Shown: positions 256-60,747, counted from the stretch's first letter. The stretch is DNA of 64,000 bases from Bacteroidota bacterium (GCA_036846145.1 DAIUCM010000002.1:15345-79344), one strand, 5' to 3'. The notes: generated from the letters alone by a model not told the origin. Program-made: numbers and translations.

Positions 256-349
256 TTCGATCAGCTGCTGCAGGTGCGTTTCTTTTAATTCTTCCTGCCC
301 AAAGCATTTTTCCGGCAGTATATATATGGTAAACAACACCAGTATTATA

Positions 350-1189
350 CTATAAACCTGTTTCCGGCCTGCCATATTGCAAGGTAATATTTGGTGTGGA
401 ACCTAAGATGCCATAAACGCCGAAACCAAGGTGAATTTTAACATTTTTATGGTAGAAACCTGCGCCGAAAGTATAAGCAACAGCCTGGGTACGGAAACCT
501 GCCTGCAGCTCGATTTTATCGTTCGGCTTATATTCAAGGCCGAGTTTTACGCTTGTTTTCTGCTTTATTTCGTGCGCTGCTTCGGCAACAATTGTAATAT
601 GCTGGCTTAGCCGGTGATTTGCGCCGAAGCGTACAATTTGTGGCAGGCGCTCATTCTGGTAAATGCTGAACCTGGGCGGAGAAACATTCCACACAAGGAG
701 CGAAACATCCGTCTGGCTATTTAATTTATATAGAACCGAAATATCGCCGATGGCAACAGTAAGCCTGCCGTAAGGCTCGGCAATGCGGGTGTGCAAGGCA
801 TGGAAACCAACCCCTGCGCTTACCTGCCTGTTTAGCTTCAGGCCATAAGCCAAAGTATATTTTTGCTGCTGGAAATATGGCGACGCGCCAAAAATATACA
901 GTCCGCCGCCTAGTGTGCCTGCCTTGCCTTTTTGTAATGGTAAAGCTGCGGTAAAAGCGCCGTTGGTAAGCTCCTTTAAGTTGAATTTACGCTCCGCCCA
1001 AACACCGGCGCCGGCATTTTGCAGCCATGCAAGCTGCGATGGATTATTATGTACCGCCCAAACATCTGTTAGCCCAAGGCTTGCATCGGCGAGTGAATTA
1101 GCCCTGCCACCCGCATAATATGGCGACTGTGCCTTTGCCCGGAACAAAAGCACAAACAGCAATAATATGATATATTTAGATTTTCGCAC
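350..1189 (-). CDS. outer-membrane beta-barrel protein with signal peptide; possible T9SS-associated PorP/SprF/PorQ-like partner of the upstream type-B CTD protein
   Basis: 279 aa, N-terminal signal peptide (MRKSKYIILLLFVLLFRAKAQ), alternating amphipathic beta-strand composition; located two genes downstream of a type-B CTD cargo gene, the usual position of PorP/SprF-family genes; canonical PorP N-terminal QDPQFSQY motif not seen. Confidence 0.4.
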   Translation of the reverse strand: MRKSKYIILLLFVLLFRAKAQSPYYAGGRANSLADASLGLTDVWAVHNNPSQLAWLQNAGAGVWAERKFNLKELTNGAFTAALPLQKGKAGTLGGGLYIFGASPYFQQQKYTLAYGLKLNRQVSAGVGFHALHTRIAEPYGRLTVAIGDISVLYKLNSQTDVSLLVWNVSPPRFSIYQNERLPQIVRFGANHRLSQHITIVAEAAHEIKQKTSVKLGLEYKPNDKIELQAGFRTQAVAYTFGAGFYHKNVKIHLGFGVYGILGSTPNITLQYGRPETGL

Positions 1190-1241
1190 AAAGCATTTTT
1201 ACAGTATTATATATATGCTTTTTATGCGAAATGGTTTAATA

Positions 1242-1550
1242 TCAGGCAGTAAATGATGGGAAAGCCGGTGAAACTTCTTCTACGCTCCAGGCTTCGGCCT
1301 TAAAAGCGAAAAGTGCTTTTGTGCGTTTCCAGGTTTGCGCAAAAAGCGCTGAATTTCTGTAGGCATGCAGCGATGTTTCATTGTCCCAAATGCTGTATGT
1401 AAATAAAATATTGGGCGTATTTTTATCCTGCAACAGGCGCAAATGCGAACAACCGGGAAAGGAGCTGATCTTTGGGTAAACTTCGGCGAAAAGCTTCAGA
1501 AAATTATCTGTTTCTTCATCGCGGAAGTGCATTTTCACAATTCGTATCAT
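1242..1550 (-). CDS. small hypothetical protein (possible ABM/Dabb-like alpha+beta barrel)
   Basis: 102-aa ORF between T9SS cargo gene and beta-barrel gene, same strand; no strong motif. Confidence 0.35.
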   Translation of the reverse strand: MIRIVKMHFRDEETDNFLKLFAEVYPKISSFPGCSHLRLLQDKNTPNILFTYSIWDNETSLHAYRNSALFAQTWKRTKALFAFKAEAWSVEEVSPAFPSFTA

Positions 1551-1619: not shown

Positions 1620-4484
1620 TCAGCGAAGCAAAGTAACCGTGCCTTTGTAAAACTTGCCGCCAATGGTTATGAGGTAAAAATAAGTACCATCGGCCAGCTG
1701 TTTGCCGTTGCGGCTGTCGGTTCCGTCCCAGCAGTATTTATCGTTCCGGAAAACAAGCTCGCCCCAGCGGTTATAAATGTGCATTTCGGGCACGCATTTG
1801 ATATCATAATTTTTAATTATCGCACCGAAACATTCATTCTGGCCATCGCCATTTGGAGTAATTACATTCGGGATATAAAAATCCAGATCGTTAAACTCAG
1901 GGAAGTCAAAGGCAAAAGGTTTGGTATCTGTACATTTTGCGCCGGCAGTAGTCAGCAGGAAACCATTAACTTTTTCACCATACGGAAACTCAAGCACCGG
2001 GTTAGCTTCGGTAGAAACTACCTGGTTATTTACGTACCATATATAACTTAAGCTATCAGTTGCGGTTGTTGCAAAACTAACTGTGTTCCTGTCGCAGGCT
2101 TGTTTTATTTCGTAAGCCAATTCCACAACAGGATTATCAACCGTAATGGTTACAGAATCGGTTACGCTGCAGCCTTTAAATGTTTTTGTTACGCGGTAGG
2201 TAATAGTTTCCTGCGGTATGGCAATTGGGTTGGGAATATTCGCATTGCTCAACCATTTTTGTGGCGACCAATATATGGAATAGCCATCATTGGCTGAAGT
2301 TGTGCCCAGTTGCACCTGTTTTCCATAACAAATAGCAGTATCATTTATGGTGAAAACATAATCGGCAGGATCTAAAATAGTTATGTTTTTACTGAAAAAC
2401 GTTGTGCAGTGGCCTGCTTTTGAACGCAGCTGCACCGTATAGGTTCCGTTTGCCGGGAAGGTAAACACCGGGCTATGTAAAGTGGAAGTATCTGCAAGGC
2501 TGGTATCTACGCCAAAATCCCAGTAAAAACTATCGCCTTTGCCCTGGTTGATGAATGAAACCTGCTTTGTACAAACGGAATCGGGCACGGTAAAATCTGC
2601 AACAGGATCATAAACCACAATCTTTACCGAATCTCTGTAAACACAATTGAGGAAAGTTTTGGTAACGTAATAGGTAATGGATTCCTGCGGTGTTGCCAGC
2701 GGATTAACCGAGGAATTATCATCCAGCCATTTATCGGGCAGCCAGCTGACTTTATAAGCCTGCTCCGTTGTATCTGCACCAATTTTCAGTGAAGCGCCGG
2801 CACAAATTGCAGTGTCATCTACAGCCAGTTTATAGCCTTCTAAAGTGTGAATGGTTATATTTTTAGATATTGTATTTGTACAAACTCCGGTTTTGGCAAG
2901 CAGTTTAACCGTGTAAGTTCCGGTACCGGGAAATGTAAAAACAGGATTTTTTAAGGTTGATACATCGGTATCTGAATTTGCGACACCAAAATCCCAGTAA
3001 AAGCTATCGGCGCTGCCAAGGTTGGTAAAAGCTACTTCCCTCCTGCAAAAAAGCTGCGGCGCAAAAAAATCGGCCCGCGGATTATTTACTTTAACGGTAA
3101 CCGTATTGGTATAAGTACATTGCTGGAAAGATTTTGTAACTATGTAAGTTGTGGTTTCCTGCGGCCTGGCTACAGGGTTTGGCACAGAAGTACTGCTAAG
3201 CCATTTATCTGGCGACCATGATATGGTATAACCATCAGTGCTTGTAGTTGTGCCTAAATTCAGCGAATCGCCCAGGCAAATTACAGTATCGTTTATAGCG
3301 AAGAAATAATCTTTCGGATCTTTTATAATAATTTCCCTGGAAAAGCTATCGTAACAATTCCCCGAAAGGGCAACCTGCCATACTTTATATGTACCGTTTG
3401 CCGGGAAAGTAAAAACCGGGTTAAATGCAGTTGATGTATCATTCTCTGTACCAGCCACGCCAAAATCCCAGAAAAAGCTATCGCCCGTACCCAGGTTTGT
3501 AAACTGTACTTCTTTTTTACAATAAATTGGCGGCGCAGTAAAATTTCCCTTTACGGCAAACTGGCATGGCAAAACATTAAACTGGTAATCTCTTTTTGTT
3601 TCGCCAATAAGTGTGCCTTTACGATATTCCTTTACAGCCACGCCCACAACAAACTGCCCGAGCGTTTTTGGCAGAAAAGTAAGCTTGCCTGTTGTGGAAT
3701 CTATCTGTAATTTTGAGTTTGTGCCCAAAGCGAATTTCTCATTATAAGTACTACGCCATTGTATGGTATTGTATGGCGGGGCAGATGGCGGCCTGGGCAG
3801 CGAAAATGTAGCCGTACCGCCAATAAACGGTGTATATAGCTCATATGCAAGCGAATCGCCATCTGCATCAACTGCTGCATGGTCGAAAACAAAGGTTTCG
3901 TTTACACATAAAAAATTAGGCGGCAGGCTTTTAAAAACAGGCGCGGAATTGCTGTCAACCAAATTTACGCCCGGTATTCTGGTAAAATATGTAGCGCCCG
4001 TACTGGCCGGGTTTATAATATTGGTAATGGTACGGTTACGGCAGCAGCGCTGGTAAGCCAGTATGTAGCCATCGGCAGTATCTTTAAGCACAATGGTTTT
4101 GGTGTAAACGTACATATCCACACAGGCGTTGCTGGGCGGTACAATACAGGTGTAATTTGCGTTGTCTATACGTGTTGGCCCGGTTCGTTCTATGCTGAAA
4201 GAATCGAGTAAATTAAATTTAGAATCGAAAATGCCGATGTTGGCGAACCTGTCCTGCGCAATGGCTTGCGGCAGGCCGTTTACGCAATCTACAAACAATA
4301 CAAGCTTTATTTCGTACCTGTTGGAATCCTGCCTGGTATAGGTAATTTCTCCCCCAACAATGTGAGAAGCCCTTAATCCTGTACAGCATAATAAGCACAG
4401 CAGTACAACGGCACTAAACCTATGAAAAATTTTCATATGCCACCTCCCGGAAAAACAATATTTACAGCGCTGATTTTCATCCAT
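1620..4484 (-). CDS. T9SS type-B C-terminal sorting domain protein with three tandem PKD-like repeat modules
   Basis: 954 aa; signal peptide; three ~160-aa repeats each containing F(T/I)N(L/Q)G.GDSF(F/Y)WDFGV...NPVFTFP..GTY.V and ...GY.I.W.PDKWL....NP.A.PQE(T/S)(T/I)TY.VTK; C-terminus FYIPNVITPNGDGQNECFGAI...YNRWGELVF matches gliding-motility-associated CTD (TIGR04131-like). Confidence 0.75.
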   Translation of the reverse strand: MDENQRCKYCFSGRWHMKIFHRFSAVVLLCLLCCTGLRASHIVGGEITYTRQDSNRYEIKLVLFVDCVNGLPQAIAQDRFANIGIFDSKFNLLDSFSIERTGPTRIDNANYTCIVPPSNACVDMYVYTKTIVLKDTADGYILAYQRCCRNRTITNIINPASTGATYFTRIPGVNLVDSNSAPVFKSLPPNFLCVNETFVFDHAAVDADGDSLAYELYTPFIGGTATFSLPRPPSAPPYNTIQWRSTYNEKFALGTNSKLQIDSTTGKLTFLPKTLGQFVVGVAVKEYRKGTLIGETKRDYQFNVLPCQFAVKGNFTAPPIYCKKEVQFTNLGTGDSFFWDFGVAGTENDTSTAFNPVFTFPANGTYKVWQVALSGNCYDSFSREIIIKDPKDYFFAINDTVICLGDSLNLGTTTSTDGYTISWSPDKWLSSTSVPNPVARPQETTTYIVTKSFQQCTYTNTVTVKVNNPRADFFAPQLFCRREVAFTNLGSADSFYWDFGVANSDTDVSTLKNPVFTFPGTGTYTVKLLAKTGVCTNTISKNITIHTLEGYKLAVDDTAICAGASLKIGADTTEQAYKVSWLPDKWLDDNSSVNPLATPQESITYYVTKTFLNCVYRDSVKIVVYDPVADFTVPDSVCTKQVSFINQGKGDSFYWDFGVDTSLADTSTLHSPVFTFPANGTYTVQLRSKAGHCTTFFSKNITILDPADYVFTINDTAICYGKQVQLGTTSANDGYSIYWSPQKWLSNANIPNPIAIPQETITYRVTKTFKGCSVTDSVTITVDNPVVELAYEIKQACDRNTVSFATTATDSLSYIWYVNNQVVSTEANPVLEFPYGEKVNGFLLTTAGAKCTDTKPFAFDFPEFNDLDFYIPNVITPNGDGQNECFGAIIKNYDIKCVPEMHIYNRWGELVFRNDKYCWDGTDSRNGKQLADGTYFYLITIGGKFYKGTVTLLR

Positions 4485-5494: not shown

Positions 5495-6550
5495 TCATTG
5501 CACAAACAGAAACTCGCCCGGAGAAACCCCAACCTGGAACTGGTGCTTAAACGCACCGCCGGATGTATAATGTAAAACGTAGCCTTGCTGCACATTATCA
5601 ACCGCATCGCTCACATAAATATCGTTGTTATTAGGATCTATGCCGAGGCCATAAAACTGCTTGCTGCCGGCCGTAATAAACGGTGTTTGCGGAAGAGCGT
5701 TATCAGTGACTGACATTCTGTAAACATCTTTATAGATGAAATATAATACATCGCCTTCAGCATTTATTTTAAGCTCGGAAACAGCTCTTGCTCTGCTCTC
5801 AAACTCAAAGGTTCTGATAATTCTTTTTGCATCGGGATCTATACAATACAGGTAGGAATTTTTACCGTTTACAGCGCCATCGCAAAGCACCCACAGTTTA
5901 TTGTTTTTATCCAGCTGCATCCATTGCGGCTCAGCTTTAACCATTAATACTTTGGTGATCGTATCTGTTCCTGCATCTATAACCAATATTTCCTGTTGCT
6001 TTGGCGCGCAGACGAATACCTCGCCTTTATGCATTATCATCTGCTCGGTCCAGTTATTCAGCAAAGTATCTTTATCCTGTTCATAACCTATCTTGCGCAA
6101 TACCTGGTAAGTTGATGGGTCTATTATCCATATTCCATTGGCATACAAATCGGTAACATAGGCTTTTGATGCATTCACCGGCAGGAAATACCGAGGCGAA
6201 TTAAGGCCTTCAATCAGCGCTTCGGACTTTAAGGTCTGGCTGTTGAGCACCTCAATTTTCTGCATATTGTTTACTACGGCAAAATACTTATCGTTATAAA
6301 GATACATGCTCTGGAAAACATCGCCGATGGGCCGGTTATTGATGCGCCGGAAAACATCATTCTCTACCTTCTGGCTATCAGGATTATACAAGCTCAGGCT
6401 GCCCGATGTTAGCGTAAAAGTGCCTTCGTTAATTACATAAACACCTTTGGAAACATCGCCTTTTGGCTGATCTAAATTTATCGGGTCATCATCCCTGCAC
6501 GTAGAAAAAGCAAAGCAGATAAGCAGTAAAAACGGAAAATATTTTTTCAT
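5495..6550 (-). CDS. YncE-like (YVTN/DUF5074-type) beta-propeller surface lipoprotein, translationally coupled to TonB-dependent receptor
   Basis: 351 aa; lipoprotein signal (LLLICFAFSTC); repeated Y-V-x-N/D-x-G blade motifs (VYVINEGTF, AYVTDLYANGIWIID, LWVLCDGAVNG, IYVSDAVDN); start overlaps TBDR stop by 4 nt (ATGA). Confidence 0.6.
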   Translation of the reverse strand: MKKYFPFLLLICFAFSTCRDDDPINLDQPKGDVSKGVYVINEGTFTLTSGSLSLYNPDSQKVENDVFRRINNRPIGDVFQSMYLYNDKYFAVVNNMQKIEVLNSQTLKSEALIEGLNSPRYFLPVNASKAYVTDLYANGIWIIDPSTYQVLRKIGYEQDKDTLLNNWTEQMIMHKGEVFVCAPKQQEILVIDAGTDTITKVLMVKAEPQWMQLDKNNKLWVLCDGAVNGKNSYLYCIDPDAKRIIRTFEFESRARAVSELKINAEGDVLYFIYKDVYRMSVTDNALPQTPFITAGSKQFYGLGIDPNNNDIYVSDAVDNVQQGYVLHYTSGGAFKHQFQVGVSPGEFLFVQ

Positions 6551-8457
6551 AATTTCTGAGTGAAATTTATAGCTGCGCCTAATTCAAACCATCGGCCCGG
6601 CATGGCGCGGAATTCTATGGCCTGGTAAGAAACATCTAACAGGTTATTGCATTTGGCAAAAGCGCGCAACGCAACATTTTTTAGAGTAAAGCCACTCTCC
6701 AGCTGCAAATTTACAATGCTGTAAGCGGGCAGAAAATAGGTTGGCGTATTTCGGCGCTGCGTGTATATATACTGCGCCGAAAAAATGCTTTTGCCGTAGC
6801 CTGCTGTTGCGCCCATTTGCGCTGTGTGAACAGGTACATAAATTAGCTGCCGGCCAACAGTTTTATCAAGTTCGCTCAAAGCGCGCTGGCTGGTGGAACG
6901 CACATAGCTGTATGCGCCGGAAACGTCTACTTTAAATCCGGCTACATCAACAGCTGTTTTTGATGAAATCTCTGTTCCGCGCGACCAAACTTTTTTAAGG
7001 TTTTGCGGCGTCCAGAATCCTCCCGAACCGGGCTGCCATTGTATGTAATTATCTACAGTTGTAGTAAAAAATGTCACCCCGTTCTGCCAGTTTATTTTTC
7101 CATTTTTTGATCGTAGCTGATTCTTACATCCGGCTTCTGCCGATAAGGCGTTTTCCGGCTGCAGGTTTGGATTTCCGCCCGGGTACCAGTATAAATCGTT
7201 CAATGTGGGATAGTTATAATTTCGTCCGATATTACTGTAAAAATCAAGCTTCTTATTTTTAATCACCTCGACATTTGCTGCTGCTGCGTACGATAGTACA
7301 TAGTTCTGGAAATTGAAAGTTTCAGGGCGCAATAAAAAGCTTAACTGTAAGCGCCTGATTCCGGCATACTGCAGGTTTACAGGAATACTTACCCGCTGCT
7401 GGCCTTTACGGTTGTATTTGGGCGATGTTGCCTCATCTGCAATAGCCTGTAAACCAGCATCTGCCTGCAGGCTCCTTAATTTTTTCCAGCGCAAATGCGG
7501 GTATATATAGTATCGCTGAAAAATGCTTCGGGAATGAATACCGGCAATTAAATTATCGTAATCCAGCTTTTCGCGGCTGTAACCTGCATCCAGAAAATAT
7601 TGCGTGTTTTCTGCATATTTACGGAGCTGGAAAGTTGCGCGTGCCGATGCATCATACTGCGTTTCGTTATTATTGGCGGTGATCAGCAGCGGAGGCAATT
7701 GCTTGTCCGCTTCCTGGTACCAGAAAGCCGCCGAAAACCATAACTTTTCCCTGATTTCACCATCCAGTGTTTGCACCCACCCGTATTGCCTGTACGCTGC
7801 ATTTTTTTGCCTTTCTTTTGGCAAACCTGGTTTCGTGGTATTGATAAATAAGAAATCGTTATCTGACTTTTGATGGTATATACGTGTGGAAGCCATTATT
7901 TTCTTCCCGTAACCGGCCCTGAATTGTGTTTGCCTTAAACCGAAACTACCGTAACTCTGCATCAGCTCGCCGCTCAGCTCATTTCTTTTTGATGAAACCG
8001 ATTGCATGGAAATATTACCGCCGAAACCGCCGCTTCCTTGCTGCAAACCTGCATTTCCGTATTGCAGTTCCACCGCATCTACCGCGAAAACCGGCACCAG
8101 GTTAAAATCCGCAACACCCAGCATGGGTGATGTTAAGGGCAGCCCGTTCCAATAGAGTTTTGTGTGCCCTGCCGCAGTACCGCGAAAACTGGGTAATGCC
8201 AACGCGCCCGGACCATAATTTTTAATAAAAACTGTTGAATTGCGGGTTAATAATTCTGCCAGCGAGTAATTTCGGTTGTTTGCCAGCACCAGCGAATCCA
8301 TTTCAACCATTTTCATACCCTGGAATGGTTTTGCTTTGCCGGTAATTTCTACTTCGGGCATTGTAAGCGAGTCGGGCGGTGTTTGGGAGAAAACTGCAGC
8401 AGGAAATATGCTCAACAAAAGCCATAGAACAACGCTGCAAATTTGTTTTCCTAGCAT
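6547..8457 (-). CDS. TonB-dependent receptor (plug + 22-strand barrel), small BtuB-like size
   Basis: 636 aa; signal peptide; plug-domain motifs (E.ITG....G....E..V.....R.YSLAELL, FIKNYGPGALALPSFRG, LYWNG.PL); size typical of BtuB/CirA class. Confidence 0.8.
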   Translation of the reverse strand: MLGKQICSVVLWLLLSIFPAAVFSQTPPDSLTMPEVEITGKAKPFQGMKMVEMDSLVLANNRNYSLAELLTRNSTVFIKNYGPGALALPSFRGTAAGHTKLYWNGLPLTSPMLGVADFNLVPVFAVDAVELQYGNAGLQQGSGGFGGNISMQSVSSKRNELSGELMQSYGSFGLRQTQFRAGYGKKIMASTRIYHQKSDNDFLFINTTKPGLPKERQKNAAYRQYGWVQTLDGEIREKLWFSAAFWYQEADKQLPPLLITANNNETQYDASARATFQLRKYAENTQYFLDAGYSREKLDYDNLIAGIHSRSIFQRYYIYPHLRWKKLRSLQADAGLQAIADEATSPKYNRKGQQRVSIPVNLQYAGIRRLQLSFLLRPETFNFQNYVLSYAAAANVEVIKNKKLDFYSNIGRNYNYPTLNDLYWYPGGNPNLQPENALSAEAGCKNQLRSKNGKINWQNGVTFFTTTVDNYIQWQPGSGGFWTPQNLKKVWSRGTEISSKTAVDVAGFKVDVSGAYSYVRSTSQRALSELDKTVGRQLIYVPVHTAQMGATAGYGKSIFSAQYIYTQRRNTPTYFLPAYSIVNLQLESGFTLKNVALRAFAKCNNLLDVSYQAIEFRAMPGRWFELGAAINFTQKL

Positions 8458-8466: not shown

Positions 8467-8862
8467 TTAATTTACAACCAGTTTTCGCTGTATTATTTCT
8501 TCATTCACAGCAACCATTTTCAGCATATATACACCTTTAGAAAAATGCTTTGAAGCGATATTTATACTGATATTTTTTTCGCCGTTTATTGCCTGATAAT
8601 AAATTTGTTGCCCATAGATATTATAAATTTCGAGCGCTTTATAAACTGTATTCACCAACTGCAATTGAATATTAACTGACCTGGAAATTTCTACCGGGTT
8701 CGGGAATATTTTTATACCTTGAAACTGAATATCATCATTCAATCCCAAAGCAACATTCCTCGTTTCGCCCATGGCATAACCATCGCCGTTTCCACCCAGG
8801 TACTGCGCTTTAGCTGAAGTAAAGCTCAGCAGGAATAATATTGCTATTACAAGATATTTCAT
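8467..8862 (-). CDS. small secreted protein consisting essentially of a T9SS type-A C-terminal sorting domain
   Basis: Signal peptide MKYLVIAILFLLSFTSAKAQ then ~110 aa ending IFPNPV..S..V.IQL......ALEIYNIYGQQIY......GEKNISI......KGVYMLKM (Por_Secre_tail pattern); first gene of the TBDR operon; ORF could start at 8901 (alt ATG). Confidence 0.55.
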   Translation of the reverse strand: MKYLVIAILFLLSFTSAKAQYLGGNGDGYAMGETRNVALGLNDDIQFQGIKIFPNPVEISRSVNIQLQLVNTVYKALEIYNIYGQQIYYQAINGEKNISINIASKHFSKGVYMLKMVAVNEEIIQRKLVVN

Positions 8863-8913
8863 ATCCATTAAAAAATTAAAAATGCAGTAAACCAATCTCA
8901 ATTATAAATTAAA

Positions 8914-10677: not shown

Positions 10678-10771
10678 TTAGCGTAATTCTTATTCCGGAG
10701 ATATATAAATAAATTACATATAAACCAGCACGAAATCATAGTTTATCTAAAAAATCATTATAATCAAAGTT

Positions 10772-50973: not shown

Positions 50974-51823
50974 ATCATTCGTACACGAGGTAAAAGACAA
51001 GATCTTCCGTATAGTAGGTATAATTTCTACTGTATTTGCGCTGCTTGTATTGGTTGTGTTGCTGATAGATGTAGCGACAGATGGCGGCGCTAGGCTCAGC
51101 TGGGATTTTCTTACAAAACTGCCTTCCAGGTTTCCGCACAAAGCAGGTATTTTAACCGCTTGGGTGGGTACAATATGGATAATGGTTATGACTGCTATTT
51201 TCGCCTGCCCGATTGGTATTGCAGCCGGAATTTACTTACAGGAATATGGCAAGAAAAATCGCTGGACATCATTCATCGAAGTAAATATTGCTAACCTGGC
51301 CGGCGTGCCATCAATTATTTATGGTCTTTTAGGCCTTGAGCTATTTGTAAGGGCGCTAAGTTTGGGTGAAAGCATTTTAACGGGTGGTTTAACTTTATCA
51401 TTACTTATCCTGCCAATTATAATTGTTTCCACAAGAGAAGCCATAAAAGCAGTACCTTATACTTTGCGCGAAGCATCTTACGCTATGGGCGCTAGCAAAT
51501 GGCAAACCATATGGCACCAGGTTTTACCTGCGGCAAGCGGTGGCATTTTAACCGGCATTATCCTTTCGCTTTCGCGCGCCATTGGAGAAACCGCGCCGCT
51601 GATTGTAATTGGTGCATTAACTTATGTGCCTTTTGTGCCGAGCTCGCCTATGGATTCCTTTACAGTTTTACCAATACAGATATTTAACTGGGTTTCCCGT
51701 CCTCAGCAAGGCTTCGTAATAAACGCGGCAGCAGGTATTATTGTATTACTTATATTAACTTTGTTAATGAATGGCTTCGCAATTTACCTGCGCCAGCGCT
51801 GGCAGCGTAAGGTGAAATGGTAA
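50966..51823 (+). CDS. pstA: phosphate ABC transporter permease PstA
   Basis: 285 aa, 6 TM, LSRAIGETAPLIVIGAL; 8-nt overlap with pstC. Confidence 0.9.
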   Translation: MSKSFVHEVKDKIFRIVGIISTVFALLVLVVLLIDVATDGGARLSWDFLTKLPSRFPHKAGILTAWVGTIWIMVMTAIFACPIGIAAGIYLQEYGKKNRWTSFIEVNIANLAGVPSIIYGLLGLELFVRALSLGESILTGGLTLSLLILPIIIVSTREAIKAVPYTLREASYAMGASKWQTIWHQVLPAASGGILTGIILSLSRAIGETAPLIVIGALTYVPFVPSSPMDSFTVLPIQIFNWVSRPQQGFVINAAAGIIVLLILTLLMNGFAIYLRQRWQRKVKW

Positions 51824-51826
51824 TTT

Positions 51827-51867
51827 CAGTGATCAGTGATCAATTAACAGTGATCAGTGATCAATTG
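51827..51867. repeat. tandem direct repeat 2 x CAGTGATCAGTGATCAATT(A/G) in the pstA-pstB gap
   Basis: cagtgatcagtgatcaattaa-cagtgatcagtgatcaattga; related CAGTGACCAGTAATCAGTGACCAG occurs inside MITE copy 2 (36841-36866). Confidence 0.6.
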
Positions 51868-52115
51868 AATATGAACATGTATAATCTCGGTTGCCGGGAT
51901 ACTGAAAGTGCGAAACCCAAAAGCATAAAAGTTTGCATAGCGTTTTTAGAAAATAATATATAGAAGAAAAATTAAGAGTAGCCATTAATGGGCGAAAAAA
52001 ACAGCCTGGCCTAAAGGCCAGGAAATAACAAAGCATTTTTACTTGCTTCCATATATGGAAACCACGGAAAATGCTTTACTTGATAATTGATAATTGATAA
52101 TTGAACATTGGGAAA

Positions 52116-52868
52116 ATGTATAAATTAGAAGCGGCAGATGTAAATTTTTATTACGGGCAGGTACACGCGCTGAAGAATATAAACATTGGTATAGAAGAAA
52201 ATACGGTAACGGCATTTATCGGCCCTTCCGGTTGCGGAAAATCTACTTTCCTGCGCCTTTTTAACCGTATGAACGACCTTATTGATGGCGCACGCGTGGA
52301 AGGAAACGTATTGATTGACGGGCAGGATATTTACTCCAAACGCACAAATGTTTATGAACTGCGCAAAAAAGTAGGTATGGTTTTCCAGAAGCCAAATCCT
52401 TTTCCTAAATCCATCTTTGAGAATGTAGCTTACGGGCTTCGTGTTACAGGCGTAAAAGACAAGAATTTTATTGAAGAGCGCGTAGAAACATCACTAAAGC
52501 AGGCAACGCTTTGGGAAGAAGTGAAAGATAAGCTGAAAAAATCGGCATTCTCATTATCGGGCGGCCAGCAGCAGCGTTTATGCATTGCGCGCACCTTAGC
52601 TATAGAACCATCTGTGCTTTTAATGGATGAACCTACTTCTGCATTAGATCCAATATCTAACAGTAAAATTGAAGAGCTTATTTTCTCGCTGAAACAGGAA
52701 TATACCATTGTAATTGTAACGCACAACATGCAGCAGGCTGCGCGTGTTAGTGATAAAACAGCGTTCTTTTATATTGGTGAGCTTGTGGAATATGATAATA
52801 CGCAAAACATCTTCACCAAGCCAAAAGAAGTACGTACTCAGAATTATATAACCGGAAGGTTTGGGTAA
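52116..52868 (+). CDS. pstB: phosphate ABC transporter ATP-binding protein PstB
   Basis: Walker [10 protein letters not shown], signature LSGGQQQRL, Walker [12 protein letters not shown]; ORF-track TTG start 52101 lies inside a TTGATAA x3 tandem repeat, ATG 52116 preferred. Confidence 0.9.
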
Positions 52869-53161
52869 ACAATGTAATAATGAATAAATACATTAATGAT
52901 ATAATAGGAATGTGTAGATGTGGAAATATGTAAATGTGCAAATTAGCTGAACAGGACAATCGGAGCACCACTCCTTCCCTGTTCCAGGGAAAGTGCCCAA
53001 AAGGCGGAAGGGCAAATTTCATATATAATAACACTGAAAAATGCTTTCAATCAATCTTCATATTTTCACATCTGCAAATAAAAATTTATTCATTCATTCT
53101 TACATTCATTCAATCTTACATTAAAAATAAACGTAACTTAGCAAAAACGTAACAGTAACAA

Positions 53162-53839
53162 ATGACGCACCTCGAAGTAGAATTAGGAAAGATTCGCGAA
53201 AGCGCGCTGGAAATGATGAACATGGTGAAAAACCAGCTTTGCAAAGGCAAAGAAGCCCTCATCACATCCAACAAGGAACTCGCATTGGAAGTAATGCACA
53301 ACGAGAAACGCGTTAACGGTTACGAATTACTGATTGATAATGATTGTGAGAACGTAATTGCCCTTTTCAGCCCGGTAGCAATTGATTTACGTTTTGTTTT
53401 GGCCACTTTAAAAATAAACTATCATTTAGAACGTATTGGCGACAACGCCGATGGTATTGCCAGAAACGTACTCGACCTGCAGGCGCAGTGGAATGCAGAG
53501 CTACTTGATTCGCTGGAAATTGTAAAAGCTTTTGATACGGCTGTGGAAATGCTGGATTTTATAATCGATTCATACGAGCATGAAGATTCCTCGCTGGCGC
53601 GTAAGGTGTTTGAAATGGACAAAACTATTGACGATATAACCGACCGGGCAATTGTTAAAATAGCAGAATACCTGAAACAAAATAATCAAAACCTCGAAAA
53701 AGATTTATATTTGCTGCTGATACATCGTAAACTGGAGCGTGTTGGCGACCTGATGAAGAATATGGCGGAAGAGATCATCTTCTACGTAGAAGCTAAGGTG
53801 CTTAAACATAAACCGAAAAAGGAAAAAATTGGCAAATAA
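53162..53839 (+). CDS. phoU: phosphate signalling complex protein PhoU
   Basis: 225 aa; two PhoU repeats with ERIGD motifs (LERIGDNADGIARN, LERVGDLMKNMAEEI). Confidence 0.9.
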   Translation: MTHLEVELGKIRESALEMMNMVKNQLCKGKEALITSNKELALEVMHNEKRVNGYELLIDNDCENVIALFSPVAIDLRFVLATLKINYHLERIGDNADGIARNVLDLQAQWNAELLDSLEIVKAFDTAVEMLDFIIDSYEHEDSSLARKVFEMDKTIDDITDRAIVKIAEYLKQNNQNLEKDLYLLLIHRKLERVGDLMKNMAEEIIFYVEAKVLKHKPKKEKIGK

Positions 53840-53849: not shown

Positions 53850-54827
53850 ATGCAATATCAGGGTAAAGATTTAGCTACATTTCCGAAACAGATACAATAC
53901 GCAATTGATAATTATATACCGCATGGCCTCAAAGTGAGCGCTTTCGATAATGTTATCATTTGCGGTTTAGGCGGCAGCGGCATTGCCGGCCGTTTGTTCA
54001 AGGTAAATACATTCAACAGCTTCCCTTTACCGATCGAGATTATATCTGACTATAATTTACCTGCTTATGTAGGCCCGCGCACTTTAGCCATACAATGCTC
54101 GTACTCAGGCAATACCGAAGAAACCTTAAGCATGTATGCGCATGCAAAGGCCAAAGGCGCAGCCATGATATGCATTGCCACAGGCGGCAAGCTACAGGAT
54201 GTTGCTTTTAATGATCATGTAATGTTTTACAAGGCGGAAGCCGGCTACCAGCCACGCATGGCGCTGGGTTATCCGCTGGCCTACCTTTTCCTTATTTTCG
54301 ATGAGCTGACAGGCACAAACAAGCGCGCGGAGTTAGAAGCAACCATAGAAACGCTTAGTAATACAGATCTGCATATAACCGAAGCACGAAAAATGCTTGA
54401 GCAGATAAAGCCGCATTTCCCTAAAAAAATAGTTGTTATTACCGATTATTTCAGCAGCGCAGCGGGTTTACGCTTTTGCCAGCAGATACAGGAAAACGCT
54501 AAAGCTGAGGCATTCCTTAACGAACTGCCTGAAAGCAACCACAATGTTATTGAATCGTACTACGGCCGGTTAGATAGTATTTTCTACTGCCTCAATACGC
54601 ATAAAAATCCGCGCACCGATCTGCGTTTCAGTTTTATAAAAGACCTTCTGCGTAAAAACGGCGATGTGGTTTTTGATATTGATATTGATGCCGACTCCAT
54701 GACTGACCTGCTGCAGAAAATATATGTAATGGATTGGCTGTCACTGCTGCTGGCCGAATATAAAGGCGCTGTATCATCGGATATTCGTAATATAAATGCG
54801 CTGAAGGATTATCTTTCTCGCCAGTAA
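53850..54827 (+). CDS. SIS-domain protein of the bifunctional phosphoglucose/phosphomannose isomerase family
   Basis: 325 aa; CGLGGSGIAGRL and CSYSGNTEET SIS motifs. Confidence 0.5.
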   Translation: MQYQGKDLATFPKQIQYAIDNYIPHGLKVSAFDNVIICGLGGSGIAGRLFKVNTFNSFPLPIEIISDYNLPAYVGPRTLAIQCSYSGNTEETLSMYAHAKAKGAAMICIATGGKLQDVAFNDHVMFYKAEAGYQPRMALGYPLAYLFLIFDELTGTNKRAELEATIETLSNTDLHITEARKMLEQIKPHFPKKIVVITDYFSSAAGLRFCQQIQENAKAEAFLNELPESNHNVIESYYGRLDSIFYCLNTHKNPRTDLRFSFIKDLLRKNGDVVFDIDIDADSMTDLLQKIYVMDWLSLLLAEYKGAVSSDIRNINALKDYLSRQ

Positions 54828-55974: not shown

Positions 55975-56152
55975 TAATTTAATTATAACGAAAGTCCATA
56001 TAGCGTTAAGCCGAAAAATGCTTTTTCCAAATTAATAGGATTAAAGTTTATTTCTCCGAATAAAGTTAGATGTGCCATATTTTGAAAATATGGCACATCT
56101 GCGCTCTGAATCTAATATACTTACCAACTATTAATACATAAAACCCTCAGTT
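55975..56152. repeat. ~160-bp duplicated element copy 2 with identical 33-bp palindrome (56067-56099)
   Basis: Aligns to 38925-39080; starts with gtccatatagcg..gccgaaaaatgcttttt (palindromic-motif half-site); embedded in 1-kb ORF-free AT-rich region upstream of the hybrid kinase. Confidence 0.6.
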
Positions 56153-56560
56153 GGAATTCCCGGGTTCAGGCAATGATAAATACAGTATAACATGTCATGT
56201 AATAAGTATTGTGATGAATTCAGTTCAAATCAGGCGCACTGCTGAAACCATTGAAAGATACTGATTTACAGCAATCTGATAACATATTTTATTTGCACGC
56301 AATACATAATACTTTTGCCTCGAAACTTATAAATAATTACCTTAGCCGCCGCAACTGAATCAGCATTGTAAACAGCATTAATTTTAATTAGAATTTATAC
56401 AAGATTAGCATATTTATTACATTTGCGTTATGCAGAGATTATTTTAATGTTAAATTAATAGAATTAAGTTTAACTTGCATAAAATAAAATGTTTATTTAG
56501 CATTTCACCAAATGGGCTCTTTAAATAACTGGCTGTCCTTTTATTTAACAAACCGAATAA

Positions 56561-59500
56561 ATGAAGAAAAATTTTTGGCAGCGGGTAAGCGCAATTGGCG
56601 TTGATCCGGATTTACCCGATGAAATAAACAAGAAAATTATACTTACCAACCAGGTTTGCTTTATTGGCTTCACTTTGCTTTGCATAGGGTTAATAGATAA
56701 CATACTGGGCGTACAAGTACCTTTAACCGGTATAATTGCCGGCATTATGGCCGGTATTGCAGTAACCTTGTTCCTTAACATGAGCGGTTACCACACTGCT
56801 GCCAGGCTGTTATTTATTGTTATGGCCTGCGCAAATGTTATACTGGTGGACTGGAAAATAGGCAACGAAACTTATAACCATGTTTACTATTTTACTACGC
56901 TGGCTTCAACATTAATACTGATAAGGCTGAAGGAACGCAGGCTCATGTTTTTTTGCATAGCGCTGTTTATTGCCACTGTTTGCCTGCTTCAGTTTAGTGA
57001 TTACAGCCCTTTTCCCCGATTGGCCTACCGGCGCGAAGAGCTGCAGTTTATACGGAATTCAAATATCTTCGTTTCGCTGAGCCTTGTTTCGTTGTACCTG
57101 TACAGTGTTTTGCGCGAGAACGAAAACAACGAAGCATCTTTACGCAGGCAGAAAGAAAATACTAATGCCATTATACAGGCTTCTAACGATTCCATTTGGC
57201 TGGTAGATAACGATTACAAGATCATATCCTATAATAACAAAGCGAAACAATCGCTACAGGAAGAATATAATTTAATTGCAGAAGAAGGAACAGATTTTAT
57301 AGCAGTACTTGAACAAAACGGACTGGCGCAGGATGCTGAAAAATGGAGAAATTATTACCAGCGTGCGCTTGCAGGCGAAAAATTTGTAACGGAAGAGTAT
57401 TTTTACTACAGCGCAAATAAAGCTTACTGCGAAATTTCCTTCAGCCCGATAAAGCAGGATAATATTATAAAAGGCGTAAGTGTTTTCGCTAAAAACATCA
57501 CCGACCGCAAACAGGCAGAAACCACCATTTCCGAACTGAATAACCTGCAAAGCGCAATTATCAACGGCACAAAAAGCTCCATTATTTCGCTCGATCTAAA
57601 CGGTTACATTACCACTTTTAACAAGGCAACCGAAAAAATATCGGGCTTTACTGCCGAGGAAGTTATCGGCAAGCACACAAAAACATTGTTCGGTATTTCC
57701 GTACAGGATGAAAAAGAGAATGCCGGCTTCATTTCAGAAAAAGAAAGAACCTTTTCAACCAAAGATGGCAGGCTTGTAAACGTATCAACCAATACAACGC
57801 CATTGCGCAACGCACAGAACGAAACCATTGGCTATCTTATTATTTCGGAAGATATTACCGAGAAAAAGCAGGTTGAGGAACGCTTAAAGCTCATAGCCGA
57901 GAACGAGAAAAAGCGCGCCTGGGTTGCGAATGGCGTTGCGCAGCTTAACGAGCATATAAGAAATTACCAGCAGGCGCCGGATGCGCTTTGCAAAGAAGCG
58001 TTGAATTTTATTGCCAACTATTTACGTGCCAGCCAGGCTGCGCTTTATATACGCAACAGCAACGAAAAACAGGCAATGCTCAATTTAAAAGCGGCTTATG
58101 CGCTGAACATCGAAAAGCTTCAGAAACATACATTTGGTTTTGGCGAAGGTTTGGTTGGCCAGGCCGCCGTTAACAAATCACCTGCTATATTTACAGATCT
58201 GCCGCAAGGCTACCTGAAGCTGGAATCGGCGCTGGGCGGCGCAATTCCTACACTTTTATTTATTGTGCCGCTTATTTTTAATGATGAAGTAAACGGCGTT
58301 GCGGAGTTCGCTTTCCTCAATGCGCCGGATGATACACAAAAGGAATTCGCCGAAAAAGCAATGATTGCCCTGGCCGCAACGATTGACCTGATAAGCCGAA
58401 AAACAAAAACCGAGAACCTGCTAAAACAATCGCAATTATTGAACGAAAAACTAAAACAGCAGGAAGAAGAGCTAAAAGTGAGCAATGAAGAGCTGATAGA
58501 AAAAGGCCGCCAGCTGGAAGCATCGCAGGAAGAACTTTTAAAAACAAATTTGCAGATTGCGGAAAAAGCACGTTTGCTACAGGACCAGAACGATGCGTTG
58601 GAATCGGCCAGAGATGCGTTGAAGCTGAAGGCAGAACAGCTTGAAGTAAGCAGCCAGTATAAATCTGAGTTTTTAGCCAACATGAGCCACGAGCTGAGAA
58701 CCCCGCTGAACAGTATCCTCATCCTCGCCAACCTGCTTTCTGAAAACACAGAGCAAAACCTTACCGAAAAGCAGACGGAATTCGCCAAAGTGATACAAAA
58801 ATCAGGAGCCGATCTGCTGAATCTTATAAATGATATTCTTGACTTATCGAAAATAGAATCGCGCAAAATAGAACTTGAAATTACACCGGTTGATGTTGCT
58901 GAAATTACGTACGATATGGAAGTACTTTTCCGCGAACTGGCATATGAGAAGCAGATCAACTTTAAAGTAACCTTAGATCCTGAGCTGCCCAAAACCATAC
59001 ATACCGACATCATGCGTGTGGAACAGGTACTGAAAAACCTGCTATCCAATGCCTTTAAATTTACCGATAAAAACGGCACTGTAGAATTACAGGTTACAAC
59101 ACCCGGCAAAAACACCAGCTACAAAAACGAGGCGCTATATAAGGATATCCCGAAAATTGCTTTCCATGTAAAAGATACCGGCATTGGCATTGCGGAAGAT
59201 AAGCAGCAGTATGTTTTCGAAGCATTCCGCCAGGCAGATGGTTCTACAAGCCGCAAATTTGGTGGTACAGGTTTGGGCCTTAGCATCAGCCGTGAGCTTG
59301 CGCTGATTTTGGGCGGCGAGCTGCAGCTAGAAAGCAAGCCGGGCGTTGGCAGTACTTTCTCGCTTATAATTCCTGCCGGAAATAATACAAATGCACAGCC
59401 TGCTCCACAGACCATAAACCGAGAAAAAACTGCCGCTTCCCATATAGCTGATGCTGGAAAAATGCTTTCGGAAAAAACAGAAACGCCCGCACCAGAACAA

Positions 59501-60688
59501 GCCCAAAGCAAGCAGGGTAAAACCGTTCTTATTATTGAAGATGATGAGAATTTCGCCAGGATACTGGAAACCGAAGCGAAGCAAAATGGCTTTGTAACAG
59601 CGCATGCCACACGTGGCGATACGGGCCTGGCCGAAGCGCAGAAGCTGAATCCGGATGCGATAATTCTTGATATTTCTTTGCCGGTGATGGATGGCTGGGA
59701 AGTGATTCGCAGGCTGAAGGCAGATGAAAACCTGAAGCACATTCCTGTACATATTATGAGCGGCGGCGATAACCAGGAGCAAAGCTTGAAAGAAGGCGCC
59801 GTGGACTTTTTACAGAAGCCGGTAAGCAAGCAGGATATTGTGCATATTTTCGAAACCATTGCCAGCGAAACGGTATGGAACTTTAAGCGCGTGCTGATAG
59901 TGGAAGACAGTAAAACCCAGAACGAGGCCATAAAAGCGCTGCTGAATGGTTATGAGCTTGTTTGTCATTCGGCATTATCGGCGGCGGAAGCGTTTGCAGA
60001 GCTGAAAAAATTCAGCTTCGACCTGGCCATTTTCGATCTTAACCTGCCTGATGCAACAGGCGCAGAAATCATTAAGCAAATAAAAACCAATCCCGAGTGG
60101 GAACACATACAGATCATTGTTTATACCGGCAAAAACCTTCCGCAGGCAGAGTACGATGAGCTAATCCCATATTGTAACGCCATTATTCTTAAAACCGCAA
60201 AATCTTACGAGCGGCTATTGGATGAAACAACCCTGTTCCTGAGGAATTTAGAAAACCCCCATGCCAAAAATGTACATGTTATTAAGCGTAACAGCAGTGT
60301 GATACAGGATTCGCTGAAAGGGAAAAAAGTATTGCTTACAGATGATGATATGCGCAATGTTTTCGCGCTAACCAATGTACTGCAAAGCCATGATCTTGAA
60401 GTTATTATAGCCAATGACGGGCAGGAAGCGCTGGACAAACTGGCTGAACATAAAGATATAGATATTGTGCTGATGGATATAATGATGCCCGGAATGGATG
60501 GCTACACAACCATGCAGGAAATACGCAAAATGCCACAATATAAACAGTTGCCCATTGTAGCGCTCACCGCAAATGCCATGAAGGGCGACCGGGAAAAATG
60601 CATACAGGCCGGCGCATCCGATTATATTTCAAAACCGGTAGATACAGGCCGTTTACTATCATTAATGCGCGTCTGGTTATCGCGCTAA
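56561..60688 (+). CDS. hybrid sensor histidine kinase/response regulator: N-terminal polytopic membrane sensor, PAS x2, GAF, coiled coil, HisKA-HATPase, three receiver domains
   Basis: 1375 aa; H-box FLANMSHELRTPLN; HATPase G-boxes (DTGIGI, GGTGLGLSI); three REC domains with conserved D (ILDISLP, FDLNLPD, LMDIMMPGMDG) and K (LQKP, LKTA, ISKP). Confidence 0.85.
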   Translation: MKKNFWQRVSAIGVDPDLPDEINKKIILTNQVCFIGFTLLCIGLIDNILGVQVPLTGIIAGIMAGIAVTLFLNMSGYHTAARLLFIVMACANVILVDWKIGNETYNHVYYFTTLASTLILIRLKERRLMFFCIALFIATVCLLQFSDYSPFPRLAYRREELQFIRNSNIFVSLSLVSLYLYSVLRENENNEASLRRQKENTNAIIQASNDSIWLVDNDYKIISYNNKAKQSLQEEYNLIAEEGTDFIAVLEQNGLAQDAEKWRNYYQRALAGEKFVTEEYFYYSANKAYCEISFSPIKQDNIIKGVSVFAKNITDRKQAETTISELNNLQSAIINGTKSSIISLDLNGYITTFNKATEKISGFTAEEVIGKHTKTLFGISVQDEKENAGFISEKERTFSTKDGRLVNVSTNTTPLRNAQNETIGYLIISEDITEKKQVEERLKLIAENEKKRAWVANGVAQLNEHIRNYQQAPDALCKEALNFIANYLRASQAALYIRNSNEKQAMLNLKAAYALNIEKLQKHTFGFGEGLVGQAAVNKSPAIFTDLPQGYLKLESALGGAIPTLLFIVPLIFNDEVNGVAEFAFLNAPDDTQKEFAEKAMIALAATIDLISRKTKTENLLKQSQLLNEKLKQQEEELKVSNEELIEKGRQLEASQEELLKTNLQIAEKARLLQDQNDALESARDALKLKAEQLEVSSQYKSEFLANMSHELRTPLNSILILANLLSENTEQNLTEKQTEFAKVIQKSGADLLNLINDILDLSKIESRKIELEITPVDVAEITYDMEVLFRELAYEKQINFKVTLDPELPKTIHTDIMRVEQVLKNLLSNAFKFTDKNGTVELQVTTPGKNTSYKNEALYKDIPKIAFHVKDTGIGIAEDKQQYVFEAFRQADGSTSRKFGGTGLGLSISRELALILGGELQLESKPGVGSTFSLIIPAGNNTNAQPAPQTINREKTAASHIADAGKMLSEKTETPAPEQAQSKQGKTVLIIEDDENFARILETEAKQNGFVTAHATRGDTGLAEAQKLNPDAIILDISLPVMDGWEVIRRLKADENLKHIPVHIMSGGDNQEQSLKEGAVDFLQKPVSKQDIVHIFETIASETVWNFKRVLIVEDSKTQNEAIKALLNGYELVCHSALSAAEAFAELKKFSFDLAIFDLNLPDATGAEIIKQIKTNPEWEHIQIIVYTGKNLPQAEYDELIPYCNAIILKTAKSYERLLDETTLFLRNLENPHAKNVHVIKRNSSVIQDSLKGKKVLLTDDDMRNVFALTNVLQSHDLEVIIANDGQEALDKLAEHKDIDIVLMDIMMPGMDGYTTMQEIRKMPQYKQLPIVALTANAMKGDREKCIQAGASDYISKPVDTGRLLSLMRVWLSR

Positions 60689-60747
60689 AGCATTTTTAGC
60701 CATACGCATATATGCAGTTTTATTATTTAATGAAGGTATAAATTTTT

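Follow-up and report, generated by a model that had tools for sequence, protein, structure and literature searches.

A hyper-abundant bipartite word between the genes of an uncultured Bacteroidia lineage, read as a putative protein-recognition tag

The DNA analysed here is a stretch of 64,000 nt from a Bacteroidota bacterium (GCA_036846145.1, DAIUCM010000002.1:15345-79344), referred to below as the window. It carries ordinary Bacteroidota genes, including those for proteins with a type IX secretion system (T9SS) tail, CHU_C/PKD surface proteins, TonB-dependent receptors and hybrid sensor kinases, together with polA, tatC, rpiB, icd, pstSCAB-phoU and lptF/G. Distributed along the window is a directional 28-base word, consisting of CCATATAT, ten free bases and AAAAATGCTT, at a frequency of about 1/kb. 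Literature searches gave no description of this word, the strings AAAATGCTT and AAGCATTTT producing unrelated primer-type matches only, and they found no abundant bipartite intergenic motif and no uptake sequence reported for Bacteroidota.

The repeating unit is a directional half-site with a rigid gap, TcCATATAT-N10-rAAAAATGCTTy. Its two boxes are of 7 and 10 bp, with about 10 nearly free bp between them. The logo is ttT-c-CATATAT-a...cc-r-AAAAATGCTT-y, and there is no conservation outside the logo on either flank.

The unit was searched for as a directional pattern, (C)CATATAT, an 11-nt gap counted from ATATAT, and then AAAATGCTT. In the window, ATATAT-N11-AAAATGCTT gives 26 exact matches, compared with 0 in 100 third-order Markov shuffles. 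When one mismatch per box is permitted there are 52 copies, compared with 0.7 in the shuffles. The gap is exactly 11 nt in 32 of 37 ATATAT...AAAATGC pairs. A 30-nt position weight matrix (PWM) with a cut-off of at least 16 bits was applied to the window and to the shuffles, and finds 62 sites (58 with at least 20 bits) against 0.1. An earlier note on this DNA, made from the sequence alone, had put the number at about 30 copies. The motif is present at every coordinate it listed, and the true count is about twice as high. Sites with 0, 1, 2 and 3 mismatches to the 16 core bases number 24, 20, 13 and 10, against 0, 0.03, 0.4 and 3.1 in the shuffles, the spectrum being dominated by perfect and near-perfect copies. 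Single blocks are enriched too: AAGCATTTTT is found 80 times with at most one mismatch, where 27.5 would be expected, and CATATATG alone 11 times against 1.5. A repeat finder recovers the two boxes only; longer shared sequence is limited to two copies resembling miniature inverted-repeat transposable elements (MITEs) and one 136-nt duplicate.

The spacer has a weak bias, a-C-w-w-w-t-g-C-C, and similar spacer pairs are modestly above expectation (40 vs 19), as are similar 5' flanks. The statement that the spacers vary freely is therefore nearly but not entirely right, and the excess of similar spacers suggests that some copies share ancestry. Palindromy is confined to an 8-bp centre, the unit itself being asymmetric. 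Only two true double sites exist, at 25365-25412 and 52030-52077, in which both arms share the palindromic centre CATATATG. These two remain of six full palindromes proposed previously; at 4690, 41433, 44555 and 46917 the second arm is weak or absent. No folding potential was detected, the mean minimum free energy of 40-nt instances being -3.24 kcal/mol against -3.05 kcal/mol for shuffles, and identity with a hairpin, a terminator or a repetitive extragenic palindrome (REP) was rejected on this ground. The window has 36 sites on the plus strand and 26 on the minus strand. With these counts, and a sign that is inconsistent in the relatives L003 and L247, a polar word of the type of Chi or the FtsK-orienting polar sequences (KOPS) was also rejected.

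All 62 PWM sites are listed below as 30-nt half-sites with their PWM scores in bits. The relatives named are graded by PolA identity: L003 90%, L247 92%, and L004-L006, L248 and L249 65-71%. L247 is contig JBTDQJ010000050.1 of the NCBI metagenome-assembled genome (MAG) GCA_054315435.1, labelled 'Bacteroidia bacterium', and L107 is a metagenomic contig. ORF denotes an open reading frame.

301-330 (-), half-site ACCATATATATACTGCCGGAAAAATGCTTT, intergenic; 34.9 bits
852-881 (-), weak half-site, non-coding or doubtful ORF; 16.8 bits
1190-1219 (-), half-site AGCATATATATAATACTGTAAAAATGCTTT, intergenic; 29.2 bits
1546-1575 (+), weak half-site, intergenic, overlapping start of ORF 1242-1550(-); 17.0 bits
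2250-2279 (-), half-site within ORF 1620-4484(-), sense; 20.9 bits
4709-4738 (+), half-site, divergent intergenic region; 34.1 bits
5239-5268 (+), half-site, convergent intergenic region; 30.3 bits
6762-6791 (+), half-site within TonB-dependent receptor ORF 6547-8457(-), antisense; 32.3 bits
7500-7529 (+), half-site within ORF 6547-8457(-), antisense; 30.3 bits
8522-8551 (+), half-site within ORF 8467-8901(-), antisense; 30.2 bits
8986-9015 (+), half-site, operon-internal tandem gap, anti-oriented to genes; 31.7 bits
10965-10994 (-), half-site within ORF 10772-12085(-), sense; 20.2 bits
12104-12133 (-), half-site between cobalamin riboswitch and ATG at 12085; 32.2 bits
12452-12481 (-), half-site abutting -7 box TAACTTTG (12445-12452) that precedes the riboswitch; 27.8 bits
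14185-14214 (+), half-site within PKD/CHU_C ORF 12466-15324(+), sense; 25.2 bits
14413-14442 (+), half-site within ORF 12466-15324(+), sense; 34.4 bits
14568-14597 (+), half-site within ORF 12466-15324(+), sense, different frame; 33.2 bits
15339-15368 (+), half-site 14 nt past stop codon; 26.2 bits
17267-17296 (-), half-site, divergent gap; 33.9 bits
17861-17890 (-), half-site, tandem gap, anti-oriented; 21.6 bits
20549-20578 (+), half-site with an orthologue in L003, 29 nt ahead of a conserved -7 box TAACTTTG (20608-20615); 25.8 bits
21671-21700 (+), half-site filling a 53-nt convergent gap; 22.9 bits
22376-22405 (+), half-site, tandem gap downstream of polA, anti-oriented; 32.8 bits
25365-25394 (-), double-site arm 1, 22 nt upstream of polA ATG, downstream of -7 box 25475-25482, kept in L003 and L247; 35.3 bits
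25383-25412 (+), double-site arm 2, sharing the CATATATG centre, kept in L003; 36.1 bits
25624-25653 (-), half-site past terminator of small ORF, kept in L003; 33.0 bits
28114-28143 (+), half-site in loop between inverted MITE/REP-like arms; 25.2 bits
28219-28248 (-), half-site, tandem gap, anti-oriented, kept in L003; 27.2 bits
29120-29149 (+), half-site within LUD-domain ORF 28313-29698(+), sense, weaker in L003, absent in L004; 30.7 bits
30049-30078 (+), half-site within Y1_Tnp ORF 29887-30402(-), antisense; 21.8 bits
30569-30598 (+), half-site, tandem gap, anti-oriented, 17 nt from stop; 35.8 bits
31274-31303 (+), half-site with 2-nt overlap with stop codon, anti-oriented; 23.5 bits
33803-33832 (+), half-site ending 1 nt short of ATG 33834; 25.1 bits
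35223-35252 (+), half-site, convergent gap, overlapping stop of 35251-36684(-), kept in L003; 33.0 bits
36671-36700 (-), half-site at peptidase S13 gene start, kept in L003; 38.1 bits
36806-36835 (+), half-site adjoining MITE arm, anti-oriented, kept in L003; 30.5 bits
37436-37465 (-), half-site within Fic ORF 36942-38093(-), sense; 22.5 bits
38089-38118 (+), half-site whose CAT is the reverse-strand start codon of ORF 36942-38093; 33.0 bits
38842-38871 (-), half-site, convergent gap; 32.3 bits
38942-38971 (+), half-site at 5' end of 136-nt duplicated element; 19.6 bits
39935-39964 (-), half-site, divergent gap; 27.1 bits
40498-40527 (-), half-site past terminator hairpin, 3 nt from next gene's start, anti-oriented; 27.7 bits
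41449-41478 (+), half-site, convergent gap, left arm only 10.4 bits; 34.9 bits
43615-43644 (-), half-site in N-terminal part of S8 peptidase ORF 42296-43972(-), sense; 27.9 bits
43704-43733 (-), half-site within ORF 42296-43972(-), sense; 27.7 bits
44554-44583 (-), half-site, tandem gap, co-oriented; 37.8 bits
45640-45669 (-), half-site 5 nt past stop codon, co-oriented; 37.8 bits
46915-46944 (-), half-site, divergent gap, downstream of -7 box TACATTTG (46973-46980); 31.6 bits
48618-48647 (+), half-site, non-coding (doubtful ORF), MITE-like context; 30.2 bits
48853-48882 (+), half-site 75 nt upstream of pstS -7 box TAACTTTG (48958); 28.8 bits
52030-52059 (-), double-site arm 1, operon-internal pstA-pstB gap; 31.8 bits
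52048-52077 (+), double-site arm 2, pstA-pstB gap; 35.7 bits
53018-53047 (+), half-site, pstB-phoU gap; 30.0 bits
54370-54399 (+), half-site within SIS/PGI ORF 53850-54827(+), sense; 29.0 bits
54836-54865 (+), half-site, 72-nt gap, opposite-orientation copy in the L107 orthologous gap; 33.2 bits
55828-55857 (-), weak half-site, intergenic; 16.3 bits
55995-56024 (+), half-site at 5' end of 136-nt duplicated element, second copy; 32.8 bits
59134-59163 (+), half-site within hybrid sensor kinase ORF 56561-60688(+), sense; 26.5 bits
59439-59468 (+), half-site within ORF 56561-60688(+), sense; 28.3 bits
60687-60716 (-), half-site, 59-nt tandem gap, 2-nt stop-codon overlap, anti-oriented; 34.8 bits
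62216-62245 (+), half-site within ORF 61978-62604(-), antisense; 25.8 bits
62429-62458 (-), half-site within ORF 61978-62604(-), sense; 36.2 bits

The window has 46 intergenic gaps of at least 20 nt. At least one copy is present in 32 of them (about 70%), whereas random placement by gap length would give 22 (P < 5e-5). The short gaps (up to 140 nt) are occupied in 10 of 19 cases, against 3.8 expected. The copies are spread across the gaps more evenly than length-based placement predicts, with roughly one per gap, and in several of the short ones the 30-nt word extends by a few bases over the adjoining stop or start codon. Occupancy is 20/27 for tandem, 7/10 for divergent and 5/9 for convergent gaps, and the density of the motif is equal in convergent, divergent and operon-internal gaps. 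Operon-internal copies are found in the pstA-pstB and pstB-phoU gaps and in the riboswitch-headed B12 operon, where they are anti-oriented.

There is no preferred orientation. In the tandem gaps of the window and L003, 18 copies are co-oriented with the genes and 22 anti-oriented; 22 lie closer to the stop and 18 closer to the start. A further 74.7 kb of motif-rich contigs gives 11 co-oriented and 7 anti-oriented tandem-gap copies; the convergent gaps of these contigs contribute another 16 and the divergent gaps another 11. The tandem-gap total for all data is 29 co-oriented and 29 anti-oriented. The earlier impression that most copies lie 5-80 nt upstream of a start codon thus reflects the shortness of the gaps.

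Although about 80% of the DNA is coding, only 18 of 59 copies lie in ORFs, and the word is under-represented there. ORFs account for 29% of the copies in the window and for about 18% of those in the other contigs. Since the ORF copies occur in all frames and encode unrelated peptides, they are features of the DNA and not a protein repeat. A protein-motif artefact was rejected for the same reasons, the strands differing as well; at 29120 the amino acid sequence of the motif-less L004 also differs.

The species distribution of the word is narrow. The closest named PolA sequences are those of Pedobacter and Daejeonella, at only about 60% identity, and the nearest sequences are metagenomic. In L003, 22.8 kb contain 23 copies, of which about 20 are intergenic, and L247 has about 9 copies in 12 kb, including short same-strand arrays with 63-79 nt spacing in single gaps (3534-3714 and 7533-7625). 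The motif is absent from the five relatives with 65-71% PolA identity, in which no other over-represented word was found, and from two relatives with 53-56% identity. Scanning GTDB genomes with PolA yielded distant relatives only, at 53-56% identity and motif-less, so that the source species is not one of the representatives there. A metagenome scan produced 29 short motif-rich contigs with an unchanged consensus, mostly from Joint Genome Institute (JGI) sample Ga0157371; the 74.7 kb of motif-rich contigs counted above contain 85 copies. A viral scan gave 119 stretches, with at most 2 above-threshold matches per locus, and no motif-rich virus.

Nine orthologous site pairs can be compared between the window and L003. 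Their boxes are 88% and 90% identical, their spacers 47% and their flanks 42-45%, and four-fold degenerate sites in four flanking genes are 51% identical. To judge from this comparison, selection or a homogenising drive actively maintains the boxes, in copies older than the separation of the window species from L003. The retention of the boxes in old copies argues against a purely selfish copy-and-paste element, and agrees with the view of the earlier note that the motif is recognised by a protein and is not a repeat copied as a whole. Identity with a MITE was rejected, given the unconserved spacer and flanks and the half-sites without a second arm.

On the basis of the two boxes, the rigid gap, the free spacer and the independence of strand, we read the word as a lineage-specific protein-recognition tag on duplex DNA. 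An abundant protein with an architectural or gene-boundary role is our first choice for the putative reader, at a probability of about 35%. The placement of close to one copy per gap, even in tiny gaps, speaks for a boundary protein. We infer from the sequence the binding of a protein, the bending of DNA and the outcome of binding. The reader, restricted to a genus-level clade of uncultured Bacteroidia, would recognise the 28-30 bp word T-c-CATATAT, about 10 nearly free bp, and r-AAAAATGCTT-y. A single protomer carrying two reading heads, or else two subunits, would touch the flexible TA-step box and the box formed by an A-tract and TGCTT, about two helical turns apart. Because half-sites predominate, one protomer presumably reads both boxes and there is probably no obligate dimer. 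The previously suggested operator of a very abundant dimeric DNA-binding protein is therefore compatible with the data except for the dimer. At the two true double sites, the shared palindromic CATATATG centre would place two protomers back to back.

The word would work regardless of the direction of transcription. It is composed of TA steps plus an A5-6 tract, a combination typical of the sites of DNA-bending proteins. By analogy with the IHF sites of REP clusters, a reader that bends DNA could, at the borders of genes, shape or insulate the topology of the chromosome, and would affect individual promoters only incidentally. IHF sites lie between inverted arms in the repetitive IHF-binding palindromes (RIP) and bacterial interspersed mosaic elements of E. 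coli (BIME-1) and in the Correia elements of Neisseria. They resemble the present word in being asymmetric A-tract protein sites of about 30 bp, free in orientation and extragenic. Two or three copies of the word have the layout of these IHF sites, in the loop between inverted REP/MITE arms (28114 in 28075-28190, 36806 in 36760-36900, and one copy in L003), and most are elsewhere. The word is however unrelated to the IHF consensus, WATCAANNNNTTR, and is far more abundant and far better conserved; it mostly lacks REP arms, and it also occurs in divergent promoter regions and in ORFs.

Several observations weigh against an architectural or boundary protein. We know of no nucleoid protein that combines about 30 bits of specificity with thousands of near-perfect sites. 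No candidate for the binding protein was found in the window, where Pfam and NCBIfam identify ordinary genes and a few unknowns that lack DNA-binding domains, apart from a LysR and a Fic-HTH protein. The 18 copies within ORFs (12 sense and 6 antisense, in three frames and with unrelated peptides) are superfluous for a role at gene boundaries and fit a genome-wide drive better. Finally, the word arose within a narrow clade, and site-by-site selection would struggle to make thousands of 16-base matches quickly.

The alternatives differ greatly in probability. A core promoter or an UP-like element had been suggested in the earlier note. In a core promoter specific to the lineage, whether bidirectional or served by a very widely used sigma factor, CATATAT would be the upstream and AAAAATGCTT the downstream element, and two boxes with a rigid spacer are what sigma factors read. 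Like the sigma-A promoter of Bacteroidota, the motif is in two parts and intergenic, and some co-oriented copies lie 20-35 nt upstream of start codons (polA, 4770, 52101, 54900); one copy directly precedes the cobalamin riboswitch. However, the sigma-A consensus of Bacteroides and Flavobacterium is -33 TTTG / -7 TAnnTTTG (PMC7366714, PMC9723704), from which CATATAT and AAAATGCTT differ, and separate TAnnTTTG boxes are present elsewhere in the same gaps. The window has 21 intergenic copies of TAnnTTTG, 13 of which face a start codon within 150 nt, against 1-5 for permuted control words; tandem gaps have 8 co-oriented and 2 anti-oriented copies, divergent gaps 8 and convergent gaps 1. In the L003 alignment these boxes form conserved islands, TTTTTTATACCTTTGAAAAAC ahead of polA and GCGCCTTAACTTTGAAGTT ahead of the gene for a DUF6427 protein. 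The motif, in contrast, has no gene-facing bias, is common in convergent gaps and also occurs within operons. Its position relative to the canonical promoter varies, from upstream (by 29 nt at 20549 and 75 nt at 48853) to abutting, at the riboswitch, which has its own TAACTTTG box, to downstream, at polA, where the window, L003 and L247 all have it after the canonical promoter and ahead of the ATG. No fixed distance from the motif to the -7 box was found, only a mild and broad excess of co-oriented boxes 10-50 nt downstream, which could be taken in favour of a promoter. No position downstream of the motif is conserved, and in the orthologous gap of L107 the word has the opposite orientation. 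On the grounds of orientation, gap types, operon-internal copies and the coexisting conserved TAnnTTTG boxes, we rejected a housekeeping or alternative-sigma promoter, and leave this idea a very small share of the probability. A signal at the RNA level (an element of an untranslated region, a small RNA or a translation signal) is more improbable still. Several copies do lie in transcribed 5' leaders, as at polA and at 12104 between the riboswitch and its ATG, and the word contains an ATG in either orientation. Nevertheless, the two orientations are equally frequent relative to transcription, the spacer is free with practically no covariation, and Rfam matches in the window are limited to the cobalamin riboswitch, with no tRNAs. 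Strand neutrality and the absence of a fold exclude a role in RNA.

The word might also be a putative transposase or recombinase binding site, or the relic of a nano-MITE, spread by copy and paste and partly carried on MITEs. Bipartite 28-bp sites resemble the terminal repeats bound by transposases. In agreement with the earlier note, the motif is present within the MITE-like copies (28067-28190, 36760-36900) and at the 5' end of the duplicated element, here measured as 136 nt; the excess of similar spacers and 5' flanks points the same way, and a Y1 transposase resembling the REP-associated tyrosine transposases (RAYT) is encoded in the window. We regard this origin as unlikely. A few copies are MITE-borne, as had been proposed; most are not, and the cargo is no promoter. 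Old orthologous copies keep their boxes (88-90%) while spacers and flanks diverge (42-47%), unlike a selfish element, half-sites have no second terminal repeat, and it is ordinary hairpin REPs and not the word that flank the RAYT gene. The likeness to REP/REPIN systems with their RAYT is that the word is short, very numerous and extragenic, in a genome with a RAYT-like gene and hairpin REP arrays; the differences are the lack of a hairpin, the free spacer and the absence of the word beside the RAYT gene. A further comparison is with HIP1 (GCGATCGC; highly iterated palindrome 1), a hyper-abundant word of cyanobacteria whose function is unresolved (PMC5861425, PMC4390886). Both are clade-specific, with more than one copy per gene and an over-representation kept by selection or drive, but HIP1 is a contiguous 8-bp palindrome abundant within genes, whereas the present word is bipartite, asymmetric and 70-95% intergenic. 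The strongest competitor is a self tag resembling a DNA uptake signal, which we consider nearly as likely as the architectural reading and inseparable from it here. The lineage would be naturally transformable, a putative DNA receptor on its surface or in its periplasm would prefer fragments bearing the word, and biased uptake with homologous recombination would accumulate it where it is tolerated, mainly between genes. The DNA uptake sequence (DUS) and the uptake signal sequence (USS) share a frequency of about 1 copy/kb, both orientations, under-representation in ORFs and a spacing more even than random (PMC2817400). All these distributional properties are found here: 62 copies in 64 kb with near-perfect copies dominant, similar numbers in both orientations, under-representation in ORFs (29% and about 18%, against 34.5% for the Neisseria DUS) with copies in several frames, even spacing, and some dyad pairs. 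The word is present in close relatives and absent from more distant ones, and drive would explain both its rapid genome-wide origin and the maintenance of the boxes only. On the other strand, the layout of AAGCA, T-tract, 10 bp and AT-tract recalls the H. influenzae USS, with its short core and two T-rich tracts on one side (PMC3458573), and the footprint of about 30 bp, with AT-rich tracts beside a short G/C-containing core, is similarly extended. Against this, the known cores are contiguous 9-12-mers, while the word has two equally strong boxes around a free 10-bp spacer, and its paired copies overlap at the palindromic centre and are unable to form terminator hairpins. The occupation of very short gaps and the 95% intergenic share of the copies in L003 look more like a requirement of each gap. 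To our knowledge, sequence-specific uptake occurs only in Neisseriaceae and Pasteurellaceae, and the searches found no uptake specificity reported for the Bacteroidota to which this host belongs. It is a tentative suggestion that the word is a first uptake (self-recognition) signal outside Proteobacteria, bipartite and kept by biased uptake and recombination. The rest of the probability goes to explanations outside those listed.

Other features of the window were noted. The MITE-like unit at 28067-28190 and 36760-36900 has long inverted arms (GACGACATGCCTGGCGTCTC ... GAGACGCCAGGCATGTCGTC) with the motif in its loop, and a related copy is found in L003 near 900. The duplicated 136-nt element (38969-39104 and 56023-56158, 90% identity) has a strong hairpin, AGATGTGCCATATTTTGAAAATATGGCACATCT, with the motif ahead of each copy, and may represent a gene for a small RNA or else a mobile module. 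The RAYT-like Y1 transposase gene, at 29887-30402(-) and syntenic in L003 (4868-5326), has four-hairpin REP arrays on both sides (29699-29886 and 30403-30540; CCTGAYGCRTCGCATCAGG, GAGCCTTTCAGGCTC, CAGGCTGAAGGCCTG, CATGGGGCATCGCCCYATG). These REP hairpins recur at about 10640-10680, 25510-25615 and 52001-52023. In L247, two IS1595-family transposase genes (1-1822) lie near the motif arrays.

The cobalamin riboswitch (RF00174) is at 12227-12452(-), with 94.6 bits, and its own -7 box TAACTTTG is at 12445-12452. It heads minus-strand genes for T9SS-tail proteins, an FGE-sulfatase-like protein, the TonB-dependent receptor (6547-8457) and a DUF5074 protein, a string that looks like a B12-uptake operon. 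At intergenic edges, next to gene ends, there are imperfect tandem repeats of about 7 nt (TCAGTGA, GATAATT, AATTACG, CGTAATT and GAATGAA-like), which recall the intergenic TAACTGA heptamers reported in Beggiatoaceae, cyanobacteria and a few Bacteroidetes (PMC4679880). Their positions are:

51826-51865, 52078-52100, 28033-28050, 22485-22507, 48310-48345, 53085-53125, 38780-38810 and 36836-36865, tandem repeats of about 7 nt

In pstSCAB-phoU (49049-53839), the pstA-pstB and pstB-phoU gaps are unusually long, at about 280 nt, and are filled with heptamer repeats, a REP hairpin and the motif. Syntenic gaps are much shorter in the motif-less relatives, the LUD-rpiB gap being 79 nt in L004 against 287 nt in the window. 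The region 15700-19500 is low in GC (0.37, compared with about 0.41). Its non-coding gaps are long, it has few Pfam matches and fewer motif copies per intergenic kb, and it may be acquired DNA. An unlisted ORF of about 66 residues at 25720-25920(-), rich in Cys and Lys and with an N-terminus resembling a signal peptide, is followed by an intrinsic terminator (25667-25700). It is conserved in L003 (9324-9524), and in L004 and L248 as ORFs of 73 and 60 residues.

The word belongs to a small class of hyper-abundant genomic words. Genome-wide words at about 1/kb are rare, and each of the few that are understood (DUS/USS, Chi, KOPS and REP) brought a basic DNA transaction to light; HIP1 has gone unexplained for decades. 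The word described here is bipartite and strand-neutral, is present at nearly one copy per intergenic region, stays intact while neutral sites are nearly randomised, and originated within a narrow clade. For the annotation of Bacteroidota MAGs, it means that a very strong intergenic motif need not be a promoter, and the word is a sharp marker for binning the contigs of this clade. If its reader is a gene-boundary protein, the word would represent a punctuation of the bacterial chromosome of a kind not described before. If the reader is an uptake receptor, the word would take uptake sequences for the first time beyond two proteobacterial families, and would imply natural, sequence-selective transformation in Bacteroidota.

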